Under the pieces are notes generated by a model. It was not told the origin of the DNA and did no database searches. It saw only the letters and a program-made list of their open reading frames with translations. This document shows positions 57,377-60,746 of a stretch of DNA of 64,000 nt, piece by piece (positions within the stretch are counted from its first letter, which is position 1; each line of letters begins with the position of its first letter). The position numbers were made by a program, and so were the translations under genes. The stretch is from Dehalococcoides mccartyi (GTDB lineage: Bacteria > Chloroflexota > Dehalococcoidia > GIF9 > DYGU01), in NCBI GenBank assembly GCA_020724525.1, contig DYGU01000002.1:29388-93387 (forward strand), written 5' to 3'.

Positions 57377-57937
57377 GTGAATAGTACTATTCATGAAATT
57401 TTAGGGTTTGGCTTTTTCTTTGGACTAATGACCTGGCAGGGAGTAGTTCTCCTTTCTCAGACCTTAGACAAAAATAAAAAATATAAAGCTGCTTCTGCTT
57501 TTGCTGCCGCAGTAGGCAAGCCACTATTAGTTGCTGGTGGACCCTTAGGTATCACCTGGCTTCGCCATTTTTCTAAAGTGAAGGCACATGGTTATGGCGA
57601 TGTTTGCTTTGATATTGACCCCCGGGCGTTTTATGGTTGCCCTTGCGGGGTTGTGGCTGATGTCAGGCATATCCCCTTCGGAGATAAAACTTTTGGTGCC
57701 GTCTTCGTCAGTCACTTATTGGAACATCTACCTAATATAACTGATGCCAGACAAGCCTTAGCTGAACTTAACCGGGTAGCTGAAGCTGTTTTCGTTGCCT
57801 ATCCTTATAGGCAATATGTAGTAGCTTGGCTTATTCCTGGCCATTATCTTTGGGTTTGGCAAAAAGATGGCAAAATCTATCTTAAGCAACGAAAAAGCAG
57901 ACAAAAGAAGTTTAAGAAGCTTGTTGTTTCTGGTTAG
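57377..57937 (+). CDS. membrane-anchored class I methyltransferase-like protein
   Basis: 186 aa. N-terminal TM segment, then VADVRHIPFGDKTFGAVFVSHLLEHL, which resembles Methyltransf_11 motif II/III. GTG start. Confidence 0.5.
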   Translation: MNSTIHEILGFGFFFGLMTWQGVVLLSQTLDKNKKYKAASAFAAAVGKPLLVAGGPLGITWLRHFSKVKAHGYGDVCFDIDPRAFYGCPCGVVADVRHIPFGDKTFGAVFVSHLLEHLPNITDARQALAELNRVAEAVFVAYPYRQYVVAWLIPGHYLWVWQKDGKIYLKQRKSRQKKFKKLVVSG

Positions 57938-57964
57938 GCTTCGTGATAAAATACAAATAACATT

Positions 57965-58040
57965 GGGGCTGTAGCTCAATCGGGAGAGCGTTTGACTGGC
58001 AGTCAAAAGGTAGTGGGTTCGAATCCCATCAGCTCCACCA
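57965..58040 (+). tRNA. tRNA-Ala (anticodon GGC), CCA encoded
   Basis: Hand-folded cloverleaf. Acceptor ggggctg/cagctcc includes the G3:U70 Ala identity pair. Anticodon loop is ctGGCag. Confidence 0.9.
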
Positions 58041-58044
58041 TTGT

Positions 58045-58121
58045 GGCGCATTCGTCTAGGGGTTTAGGACACCTCCCTCTCAAGGAGGAGATCACCGGTT
58101 CGAATCCGGTATGCGCTACCA
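58045..58121 (+). tRNA. tRNA-Glu (anticodon CTC), CCA encoded
   Basis: Hand-folded. Acceptor ggcgcat/atgcgct has a G1-U72 wobble. Anticodon stem is cctcc/ggagg and the loop is ctCTCaa. Confidence 0.85.
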
Positions 58122-58181
58122 ATATTGACTTTTGGTTTCTTTTATACTAACATTCCAGCAATTAGCCAGAATTTGGCGATT

Positions 58182-58254
58182 GCCCGAGTAGCGCAATGGT
58201 AGCGCAACCGACTTGTAATCGGTAGGTTAGTGGGTTCGACTCCCCTCTCGGGCT
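58182..58254 (+). tRNA. tRNA-Thr (anticodon TGT), with one bulged base in the T stem
   Basis: Acceptor gcccgag/ctcgggc is perfect. Anticodon stem is accga/tcggt and the loop is ctTGTaa. T stem ag(t)ggg/cccct needs a 1-nt bulge. CCA is not fully encoded. Confidence 0.75.
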
Positions 58255-58264
58255 CCGAAGGATA

Positions 58265-58729
58265 TTGGAGGGGATCAATATGGCATTATGGCAAATTCTT
58301 CTCTTAGTTGCGTTTGTTGGGCTAATCGGTGGAGTAGTAAATGCTATATTTACCGAGAAAGGTCTTGTTCTCCCTCGGCGTAGGCATTTACGAGATTGTA
58401 GTAGGATTTTGTTGCCGGGATTTCTGGGTAACATGCTTTTTGGAGCTATTGCCGCTGTTGTAGTGACAGGTTCTGCTGGTCCATTGGGTGAGCTCGGAAT
58501 CAGGGAGGTTTATGATCTGAATGTTGGCATTGTGATCGGGGCACTAGTAGCTGGAATTGGAGGCGCCAGAATCGTAGCCAGTGAGGTAGACAAACGCCAT
58601 GGGATTGAATCACTCCGAAGTGGAGCCCATACTTTAGAGGCACTAGCCAAGAGAATGAAGGAGCAGTCCGATAGAATAGAAGAGCTTGAATCCCAAATTA
58701 AAGGGCTTAAAGGAGGTGGTGATCTGTGA
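58265..58729 (+). CDS. hypothetical membrane protein with C-terminal coiled coil
   Basis: 154 aa. Three hydrophobic Gly-rich segments followed by a charged helix. The likely start is ATG 58280. Confidence 0.5.
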   Translation: MEGINMALWQILLLVAFVGLIGGVVNAIFTEKGLVLPRRRHLRDCSRILLPGFLGNMLFGAIAAVVVTGSAGPLGELGIREVYDLNVGIVIGALVAGIGGARIVASEVDKRHGIESLRSGAHTLEALAKRMKEQSDRIEELESQIKGLKGGGDL

Positions 58730-58875
58730 GCGAGCAAACCAGCAAGGAAGGCATTGAAAAGATTGAAGAGCTATCTAAGGAATTGGAGAGGGTTTCCCTT
58801 AGAGAAAGTGTTCAGGTCTTTAAGGAGCTAGAAGAGGCAGCCGAACGATTACCCGAGATTAAGAAGGAGGAGTAA
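58726..58875 (+). CDS. possible 49-aa acidic helical protein, translationally coupled (GTGA overlap)
   Basis: Manual translation gives VSEQTSKEGIEKIEELSKELERVSLRESVQVFKELEEAAERLPEIKKEE. AGGAGG lies 9 nt upstream. It is below the ORF-track cut-off. Confidence 0.35.
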   Translation: MSEQTSKEGIEKIEELSKELERVSLRESVQVFKELEEAAERLPEIKKEE

Positions 58876-58883
58876 TTTTTTCG

Positions 58884-58971
58884 GGAGGGGTGCCGGAGCG
58901 GTCAATCGGAGCAGACTGTAAATCTGCCGCCTGAGATGGCTACGTAGGTTCGAATCCTACCCCCTCCACCA
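58884..58971 (+). tRNA. tRNA-Tyr (anticodon GTA), long variable arm, CCA encoded
   Basis: Acceptor ggagggg/cccctcc. Anticodon stem gcaga/tctgc with loop ctGTAaa. Overall similarity to E. coli tyrT. Confidence 0.9.
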
Positions 58972-58989
58972 TAAAGCAGGAAATCACAA

Positions 58990-59280
58990 ATGATCGACTG
59001 GTGTAGGTACGAAAAGAGAAGAGCTGAAATAGATAACAAAAAAGAGAAAATTAAAGAGAGGGGGGCTAAAGTTGCTCTGGAGGCGTTTGTTTTGCAAGGG
59101 CTAACATCTATGAACCTGGAACTCGAGGAATGGGCAATAGCCTTCACTGAATACTCTGAAGAAAACCCTGGGGAATGGGAGAGGAATCAATCTACCACTT
59201 CTGATCCACCAAAACTTAAAGCGTTTAAAGATAAAATTGAAAACTTCCTTGATTTGTTTGGCAAGATCAGACCTAAGTAG
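58990..59280 (+). CDS. hypothetical protein
   Basis: 96 aa, charged, with no motif. It occupies the slot between tRNA-Tyr and tRNA-Thr. Confidence 0.4.
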   Translation: MIDWCRYEKRRAEIDNKKEKIKERGAKVALEAFVLQGLTSMNLELEEWAIAFTEYSEENPGEWERNQSTTSDPPKLKAFKDKIENFLDLFGKIRPK

Positions 59281-59297
59281 TTTATAATAGTGATAGT

Positions 59298-59373
59298 GCC
59301 CACATAGCTCAGGAGGTAGAGCACGTTCTTGGTAAGAACGGGGTCACCAGTTCGAAGCTGGTTGTGGGCTCCA
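59298..59373 (+). tRNA. tRNA-Thr (anticodon GGT), CCA encoded
   Basis: Acceptor gcccaca/tgtgggc. Anticodon stem cgttc/gaacg with loop ttGGTaa. Confidence 0.9.
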
Positions 59374-59408
59374 TATCTAAAAGTTGATAAAAGGAGGTTT
59401 ATAAAAAT

Positions 59409-59528
59409 CCCCATGACAGATATCGTCTAGCCGAAGACTATTGCCTGCAGCAATAAGCTGTCACGGGGTCCCCATTATGGCTTATTGCTGGAGACATAGG
59501 TAGAAGGTAGACGCTATCCATAATGGGG
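59409..59528 (+). promoter_or_regulatory. highly structured tRNA-Thr/tuf spacer (candidate regulatory leader or small RNA)
   Basis: Three 11-bp helices were checked pair by pair: A 59409-59419/59458-59468 (10 of 11), B 59448-59458/59480-59490 (11 of 11) and C 59470-59480/59518-59528 (11 of 11). B excludes A plus C. Confidence 0.5.
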
Positions 59529-59546
59529 TTAAAAAGGAGGTTATAA

Positions 59547-60746
59547 ATGGCAAAGAAGGTTTTTGTCAGGACTAAGCCCCATGTGAATGTGGGCACAATA
59601 GGTCATGTCGACCACGGCAAGACGACTTTGACTTCGGCAATGACTTATCTCTTGTCTAAAGTCGGTCCTACCCAGTTCCGTTCTTTTGAGTCTATAGACA
59701 ATGCCCCGGAAGAGAAAGCTCGTGGTTTGACTATTTGCATTGCTCATATTGAATATGAAACAGACAAGCGCCATTATGCCCATGTAGATTGTCCCGGTCA
59801 TGCTGACTATATCAAGAATATGATAACCGGGGCAGCTCAGATGGATGGAGCTGTTGTAGTAGTTAGTGCTCCTGATGGACCCATGCCGCAGACCCGGGAG
59901 CATATCCTTTTGGCTCGCCAGGTAGAAGTACCTTGTTTGCTGGTGGCATTAAATAAAGTTGATTTGATGGAAGATGAGGAATTGTTGGAATTAGTGGAGA
60001 TAGAACTCAGGGAGCTGCTTACTAAGTATGGTTTTCCCGGCGACAAGATACCAATTGTCCGGGTAAGTGCTCTCAAGTGTTTGGAGTGTGGCTGTGCCCG
60101 GCGGGAGTGTCAGTGGTGTGGCGGAGTATGGAAATTAGTGGATACTATAGACGAATATGTACCGATTCCAGTGCGGGTGAGGGACAAACCTTTCTTGATG
60201 CCTATTGAAGATGTCTTTGGCATCAAAGGGCGGGGCACTGTGGTTACTGGTAGGGTGGAGCGAGGAACTGTAAAGGTTGGAGATGAAGCAGAGATTGTGG
60301 GAATCAAAGAGACACGGAAAACAGTGGTAACCGGGGTGGAGATGTTCCATAAGACGCTGGAGAATGCTGAGCCTGGAGATGCTATCGGCTGCTTACTCAG
60401 GGGCATAGAGCGGGATGAAGTGGAGAGGGGACAGGTGTTAGCTGCTTCTGGTTCGGTCAAACCTCATACTCATGTTCAGGCTGAAGTATATATATTGACT
60501 AAAGAAGAAGGTGGACGACATACTCCCTTCTTTAGCGGGTATAAGCCTCAATTCTATATCAGGACTCTTGATGTCACTGGAGCAGTTGAATTACCTTCTG
60601 GGGTGGAAATGGTTATGCCTGGAGATAATGTGGGAATGTCTATAAAGCTTATTTACCCAGTGGCTATTGAGGAAGGATTGCGTTTTGCCATAAGAGAAGG
60701 GGGTAAGACTGTGGGTGCCGGAGTTTTCACCAAGATCCTTGACTAA
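59547..60746 (+). CDS. tuf: elongation factor Tu
   Basis: 399 aa. Motifs [14 protein letters not shown] and NKVD. An unusual five-Cys segment lies at residues 178-191. Confidence 0.97.

Follow-up and report, generated by a model that had tools for sequence, protein, structure and literature searches.

The segment at 59403-59531 in the leader of tuf very probably stems from an insertion event particular to this lineage, in which a small non-coding mobile repeat entered the ribosome-binding site (RBS) of this gene. The leader lies within the 64,000-nucleotide stretch of DNA analysed here (the window, C24:29388-93387 of the genome), to which all positions given without a contig name refer. In the original prediction the same block was read as a switch-like leader dedicated to tuf. 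This reading is not upheld: the block is absent from the tuf leaders of relatives, is present in multiple copies before unrelated genes, and is associated with neither sequestering of the Shine-Dalgarno (SD) sequence, nor a terminator, nor an Rfam match. Another palindromic mobile element, offered at the time as an alternative explanation, is instead backed by dispersed copies, empty sites and a target duplication.

The boundaries of the element at tuf were set from an alignment of 7-8 copies with their flanks, and the locus is composed of the following parts:

59283-59288: TATAAT box, just 5' of tRNA-Thr.
59298..59373, + strand: tRNA-Thr(GGU) (ARAGORN; Rfam tRNA, 59 bits), the upstream neighbour, which precedes tuf in five relatives.
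59389..59402, + strand: left copy of the duplicated target, AAAA-GGAGG-TTTAT, the old tuf RBS, now parted from the start codon.
59403..59531, + strand: inserted element of 129 bp, consisting of AAAAAT, L unit, T, R unit and TTA.
59409..59468, - strand: L hairpin unit in reverse orientation, its stem being helix A (covariance model R1, 78.3 bits).
59448..59490, + strand: helix B, formed by the R-unit loop motif GCTTATTGCTG with its inverted copy in the L unit (11 of 11 pairs; present in the minimum-free-energy (MFE) fold).
59470..59528, + strand: R hairpin unit, its stem being helix C (covariance model R1, 80 bits).
59532..59544, + strand: right copy of the duplicated target, AAAA-GGAGG-TTAT, which serves as the functioning RBS of tuf.
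59547..60746, + strand: tuf (EF-Tu, 399 aa; ORF list; 74-91% identity to EF-Tu of five relatives).

The left target copy at tuf equals the right copy except for one additional T, and the SD of the right copy stands at the same spacing from the tuf ATG as in the empty sites of relatives. Further upstream, the spacer between tRNA-Tyr and tRNA-Thr (58972-59297) measures 326 nt and contains a 96-aa ORF (58990-59280) that has no cover in the RNA libraries described below; in five relatives with both tRNAs at this locus the corresponding spacer spans 19-187 nt.

All three helices of the leader were confirmed by reading them from the sequence. Helix A pairs 59409-59419 (CCCCATGACAG) with 59458-59468 (CTGTCACGGGG) at 10 of 11 positions, with a single A-C mismatch, and folding also returned the two small hairpins that it had been said to enclose; helix C (59470-59480 with 59518-59528) and helix B (59448-59458 with 59480-59490) are complete (11 of 11 pairs each). 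B and the combination of A with C are indeed mutually exclusive, as B has one base in common with the 3' arm of A and one with the 5' arm of C. When the leader was folded, as the original prediction had suggested, and compared to 200 dinucleotide shuffles, its structure proved to be beyond chance: the 128-nt stretch reached -54.9 kcal/mol, compared to -32.7 +/- 3.5 kcal/mol in the shuffles (z -6.3), and none of the 200 was as good. In the favoured fold, the whole of 59409-59528 forms one long, imperfect hairpin tipped by helix B (-54.2 kcal/mol), which is 9-13 kcal/mol more stable than the form composed of A and C (-41 kcal/mol as the sum of separate folds, -45 kcal/mol when enforced). None of the three helices takes in the SD; all of them end at or before 59528, the 3' end of helix C, and the GGAGG at 59536-59540 is located in an unpaired A-rich stretch of the predicted fold, ahead of the tuf ATG at 59547.

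A separate feature of this copy is the spacer TTTATAAA (59398-59405 and 59541-59548), which is palindromic, duplicated and peculiar to tuf; in the MFE fold of a wider region it pairs with the right-hand spacer as well as the A and U of the start codon, generating a weak A-U helix that lengthens the hairpin.

Searches for known regulatory signals gave negative results. In a scan of 57800-60000 against Rfam 15 by E-value, only tRNAs passed, the best other match in the leader scoring 23 bits against a gathering score of 41; an RNA family, for which the original prediction had advised a search, was thus not encountered. Similarly, a terminator and promoter scan of 58850-59700 yielded no signal above shuffles and no terminator-like site on either strand.

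Comparison with related genomes revealed the state of the locus lacking the element. In five relatives from the order, of which two share the family (EF-Tu 88-91% identical), tRNA-Thr(GGU) is followed by 24-48 nt containing one AAGGAGG and then by the tuf ATG, a spacer that leaves no room for the helices. The block is therefore lacking from the tuf leader in five of five relatives, an outcome that the original prediction had named as one that would speak against it. Empty sites were also recognised elsewhere: at the NIL-ferredoxin locus, relatives display a stop codon, AAGAAAGGAGGCGAAG and the ATG, where the present genome has the stop codon, GAAAGGAGGCAT, the element, AAAAGGAGGTAGAAG and the ATG. 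Both here and at the CooC-like locus, a single SD in same-family genomes corresponds to an SD-element-SD arrangement in the present genome.

The repeat has a narrow distribution. BLAST of the element against 40 relatives returned no match, nor did two exact-pattern scans of a genome collection covering 185,579 species, and the covariance model of the unit was matched by only one of the order's 150 further genomes. The exception (G001) carries one diverged dimer:

G001:C1, L034:1381-1585: dimer in the 5' UTR of a tubulin/FtsZ-like gene (same family, another genus).

This copy is situated between a perfect TTGACA-17-TATAAT promoter, which lies directly upstream, and the SD of the tubulin/FtsZ-like gene. 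In a pattern scan of metagenomes only two contigs matched, both from the same organism and from record QZGF01, which is the BE326 BH2 deep fracture-fluid metagenome from South Africa (PMC6256629). No empty-site allele was observed in the contigs of two DNA metagenomes, contigs being prone to drop rare variants.

The original prediction had also proposed a search for further copies, and this search, extended to the 1.34 Mb of the genome (25 contigs), identified the tuf block as one copy of a dispersed repeat. Six full copies with 87-93% identity were detected, those besides the tuf copy being located on contigs C1, C2, C16, C13 and C5. To these are added a copy on C20 that lacks its central third, a diverged dimer on C3 whose spacer is longer, and two degenerate relatives of the repeat on C12 and C22. 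A covariance model of the hairpin unit recovered exactly the known copies and none further in this genome. The genes downstream of the copies are functionally unrelated and encode EF-Tu, an MBL-fold hydrolase, a CooC/MinD-type ATPase, a NIL-ferredoxin, a thioesterase-HAD protein, methylmalonyl-CoA mutase and two small ORFs. Of the positional link that the original prediction had postulated, what stands is a tie of the copies to RBSs in general; no tie to tuf in particular was seen.

Two seeming additional copies in loose ends of DNA runs were discarded, their own consensus having an agreement of only 0.62 and being absent from the genome. At C12:39200-39400, C22:17000-17200 and C3:19475-19630, older relatives of the unit are joined with extra mini-hairpins that likewise have the form CCCC...GGGG (for example CCCCAAGAAATC/GATTTCTTGGGG), which suggests modular shuffling of hairpins with common G4/C4 feet. 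Most copies also contain a five-codon mini-ORF (ATG ACA GAT ATC GTC stop), found at 59414-59431 in the tuf copy, 15 nt past the orphaned left SD; the C1 copy, with ACG, has lost it, and its presence is probably a coincidence.

Two hairpin units of ~60 nt, inverted relative to each other, make up the repeat as a dimer. Each unit consists of a CCCC-N7 stem arm, a loop with CTTATTGCT and GACGCTAT, and an N7-GGGG closing arm. In the 16 aligned units the stem has 11 bp, with CCCC at its start and GGGG at its end, and the loop of ~38 nt has near-invariant ends (CTTATTGCT and GAC/TGCTAT) and a nearly invariant copy of the motif GCTTATTGCTG; GTAG occurs inside the loop of R units only, the unit ends being CCCC and GGGG. 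The inner seven stem pairs vary between unit types yet remain complementary, five of them with double compensatory changes across the 16 units. The covariation analysis that had been recommended for the helices thus backs A and C as unit stems. As the variable inner bases are paired within units and not between units, the structure that is maintained is the unit hairpin. L and R units are inverted relatives, so that their loops are complementary and generate helix B and with it the long hairpin; mutual exclusion of the helices thus follows from the inverted-dimer layout and not from a designed switch. All six full dimers display identical L-type and R-type stem types, indicating that the dimer spread as one unit.

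A common feature of the copies is their placement on RBSs. Eight of eight dimers in the genome are co-oriented with the downstream gene, whose start codon lies 17-19 nt past the final G of the element, and the G001 dimer also follows the orientation of its downstream gene, at 22 nt from the ATG. Seven well-preserved copies of the present genome are flanked on either side by N4-GGAGG-N3, a direct duplication of ~12 bp, resulting in the junction layout N4-GGAGG-N3 / AAAAAT...GGGG TTA / N4-GGAGG-N3, and the distance from the left GGAGG to AAAAAT is exactly 3 nt in six of these seven. Left and right flanks are more alike within a copy than between copies, the observed score being reached by only 16 of 5040 permutations. 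Taken together with the single SD in the empty sites, this likeness shows a real target duplication of ~12 bp (11-13 bp, less exact in older copies because SD sites look alike). Copy-specific bases past the GGAGG are duplicated as well, namely GTT at C2 and TT(T)AT at tuf. At C2, the CooC-like locus, GAAGGAGGGTT is duplicated exactly on both sides, the upstream stop codon is rebuilt at the junction, and the upstream ORF ends in ...KEG* as it does in the relative G001. No left SD was recognisable at the diverged C3 copy or at the G001 copy.

The genome contains 383 AAGGAGG sites, ~44% of which are followed by a start-like codon 3-10 nt on, and the remaining sites presumably lie mostly within genes. 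The RBS pattern probably reflects sequence-directed, oriented insertion together with loss of disruptive insertions, in shares that are not separable quantitatively. Selection against disruptive insertions, instead of enzymatic targeting, could lie behind part of the RBS bias, and the constant junction register argues that SD targeting is real.

Upstream genes were modified at two of the loci. At C5 (C5:11373-11384), RsmI now ends in ...AKEGQESQ*, its inferred earlier end being ...AKEG*, and at C13 (C13:4541-4566) a tsaB-like ORF runs 25 nt into the element and then terminates at a TAA; rsmI and tsaB have therefore gained a few new C-terminal codons from the element.

Transcription of the tuf copy was assessed in two metatranscriptome libraries of a subsurface study (X10 and X11). 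A contig of X10 covers 59317-59746 with zero differences to the window and one of X11 covers 59392-59775 with one gap, and the X10 and X11 contigs span tRNA-Thr, the element and the start of tuf. These data support that the element is transcribed inside a tRNA-Thr/tuf RNA; the contigs display neither RNA ends nor levels, and DNA carry-over is possible. RNA cover begins at 59298 and neither library covers 58994-59297, which fits a transcript start directed by the TATAAT box at 59283-59288. X11 also holds a contig (59346-59694) in which tRNA-Thr is joined to tuf by 209 other letters, most likely the tRNA-Thr/tuf leader of a related community organism, differing in length.

How do these observations bear on the function and origin of the block? 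A cis-regulatory RNA switch, in which the alternation between A plus C and B controls translation of tuf or release of tRNA-Thr, appears scarcely credible. The alternative helices do exist, their fold is unusually stable, the block is transcribed with tuf, and in the wider fold the spacer TTTATAAA forms weak pairs with the opposite spacer and with the A and U of the start codon; set against this are the absence of the block from the tuf leader in each of the five relatives, including two same-family genomes, and the seven unrelated genes that carry the same block ahead of them. Moreover, helices A, B and C exclude the SD, neither a terminator nor an Rfam family is associated with them, the long hairpin is favoured over A plus C by 9-13 kcal/mol, and either fold would leave the SD equally free. 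A mobile origin followed by exaptation, with copies kept for a useful hairpin 5' of the SD, is unlikely, the possible roles being protection of the mRNA 5' end, RNase III cleavage by which the downstream cistron becomes independent of the upstream gene or tRNA, or insulation of the RBS from upstream structure. Such a module would be in agreement with dimers in transcribed positions, between co-directional genes, in one orientation and at a fixed SD distance, with the unpaired A-rich stretch in which the predicted fold leaves the SD, with the G001 copy between a consensus promoter (TTGACA-17-TATAAT) and an SD, with compensatory change maintaining the stems, and with the established action of Correia and ERIC repeats in mRNAs. 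However, the orthologous genes of relatives manage without the element, the C20 copy has lost its central third and other copies are decaying, and stem covariation would be equally expected of a DNA hairpin read by a transposase.

We also considered a spread independent of any transposase, in which an SD-element-SD cassette is copied between A-rich SDs by template switching or short-homology recombination, leaving an SD on each side. The A-rich SD of ~9-12 nt is the only homology common to all sites, no autonomous element with matching ends was found in the genome, and Y1 enzymes are not known to duplicate their targets, all of which is in line with such copying; we nevertheless regard it as improbable, as a switch within the SD would not predict the duplication of copy-specific bases past the GGAGG, and the constant register (3 nt in six of seven copies) resembles a fixed staggered cut. 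Insertion of a mobile repeat into the tuf RBS thus remains our preferred reading, for which the counterweights are that no movement was seen and the copies are 7-13% diverged, that no autonomous partner with matching ends was identified in the genome, and that the Y1 gene described below is unflanked by units.

With regard to the mechanism, we tentatively propose a model, which we consider possible but rather doubtful, in which the SD motif N4-GGAGG-N3 itself would be recognised by the family as a directional integration target that becomes duplicated, thereby rebuilding the signals of both genes, and in which the driver might be the sole RAYT-like Y1 transposase. Under the preferred reading itself, the dimer moved as a whole, as the common L and R stem types of the copies suggest, and existing copies show that it lands in fixed orientation on N4-GGAGG-N3 with duplication of ~12 bp. 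The left target copy preserves the end of the upstream gene, and the right copy supplies the working SD, at 17-19 nt from the element edge to the start codon. Duplication of the SD may in this manner allow the element to sit in tightly packed operons with both neighbours alive.

The candidate enzyme is encoded on the same contig as one of the full copies:

C5:12230-12940 (L032:3431-4141, - strand in L032): the sole Y1/HUH RAYT-like transposase gene (PF01797), intact.

PF01797 has a single match in the genome, in which the HUH motif and the catalytic Tyr are present, and the protein scores 72.2 bits on the NCBIfam model REP_Tyr_transpos (cut-off 80) versus 26.5 bits on IS200. About 0.85 kb, including rsmI, separates the gene from the C5 copy downstream of it; for this proximity we estimate a chance probability of ~1-3% (ten loci in 1.34 Mb). 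This Y1 transposase is the leading candidate mobiliser. Its gene has a TTGACA-17-TACAAT promoter ahead and overlaps the rsmI start with its 3' end, and the protein carries a C-terminal extension of ~90 aa that has no Pfam match.

Several observations bear on this candidacy. By the covariance model no units flank the Y1 gene, the nearest dimer being the one ~0.85 kb downstream, past rsmI. Y1 homologues are patchy within the order (19 of 151 genomes, with at most 40% identity), and the search gave no homologue in G002 or in G001, the relative with a copy of the repeat. Y1 transposition through single strands characteristically leaves a replication-strand bias. Here, local GC skew, read on the strand of the element, was positive at five copies and negative at three, giving no signal. 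To our knowledge, Y1/RAYT (IS200/IS605-type) transposition leaves no target duplication, and the literature consulted on RAYT and TIRYT systems reports none. IS4/IS231-type DDE enzymes make target duplications of 10-13 bp, and a DDE-type staggered cut would account for the ~12-bp duplication better than Y1. In a search of the genome for a parent insertion sequence (IS) with matching ends, which covered the DDE_Tnp_1 and rve families, the two DDE_Tnp_1 genes had unrelated termini and an rve match was sub-threshold. A resemblance between the region upstream of the RAYT gene (AGGGACAC) and the TIRYT motif GGGGWSAS was rejected as lacking support.

For annotation, these results remove a false riboswitch candidate from the tuf leader and illustrate that an inverted hairpin dimer can mimic a three-helix switch. 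The repeat itself is a clear-cut example of a small element specialised on RBSs, its SD duplication keeping both neighbours intact at every copy. Were the SD the true target of the enzyme, such a choice of site would be uncommon and would explain the persistence of repeats in small, operon-dense genomes of uncultured subsurface bacteria, and SD targeting would amount to a selfish-DNA strategy for colonising the operon junctions of a compact genome. If Y1 were the driver, the target duplication would be a new outcome for this enzyme class.

Among known systems, the repeat is comparable to REPIN/RAYT (Bertels & Rainey 2011, PMC3116915; Quentin et al. 2018, PMC6006769) in being an inverted palindromic doublet that forms one long hairpin, in unit stems that are variable yet complementary, in its intergenic, non-coding location within one lineage, and in belonging to a genome with just one Y1 gene, a RAYT-like candidate that possesses the HUH motif and the catalytic Tyr. 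It differs in its units, which measure ~60 nt with a 38-nt conserved loop, whereas REPs have 20-35 nt. REP units carry a conserved GTAG or CGTC tetranucleotide at one end (Di Nocera 2013, PMC3733652), whereas the present units have no terminal GTAG/CGTC tag. Further differences are the number of only ~10 loci, copies that do not flank the Y1 gene, the ~12-bp target duplication on RBSs in one orientation, and a Y1 protein below the REP-associated NCBIfam cut-off (72 vs 80 bits). In a limited word search of the literature, no description of an SD-targeted repeat, or of REP-type repeats in Dehalococcoidia, was found.

Miniature inverted-repeat elements (MITEs) mobilised by DDE enzymes of the IS4/IS231 type are likewise small, non-coding and palindromic, and the short matching ends CCCCAT...ATGGGG, the near-constant target duplication of ~12 bp and the preferred target motif of the present repeat are in accordance with this class. 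It is set apart by the lack of a parent IS with equal ends among the DDE_Tnp_1 and rve candidates of the genome, the termini of the two DDE_Tnp_1 genes being unrelated. In addition, the present stems co-vary and are not conserved, which argues for recognition of structure and not of terminal repeat sequence.

Correia repeats of Neisseria and ERIC/IRU repeats of enterobacteria are imperfect palindromes of ~100-150 bp in transcribed intergenic DNA, and are co-transcribed with neighbouring genes into long RNA hairpins capable of changing how mRNAs are processed and how stable they are; an overview of both is reportedly given by Delihas in 2011. The present element is similarly a palindromic repeat in transcribed intergenic DNA that forms a long hairpin within the mRNA, whereas Correia and ERIC repeats have a TA duplication, no tie to the SD and both orientations. 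The MIRUs of mycobacteria, reportedly described by Supply et al. in 1997, are said to lie within operons in one orientation and to preserve the upstream stop and downstream start signals. With these the element has in common its location at operon gene junctions, a single orientation relative to transcription and the keeping of both neighbours' signals, but MIRUs are tandem direct repeats with small coupling ORFs and no hairpin dimers, and we know of no SD duplication described for them.

Overall, the element behaves most like a REPIN or a MITE, being a proven member of neither the REP-RAYT nor the DDE-type MITE class, and the trait that distinguishes it from these systems is its oriented, SD-centred target duplication of ~12 bp.
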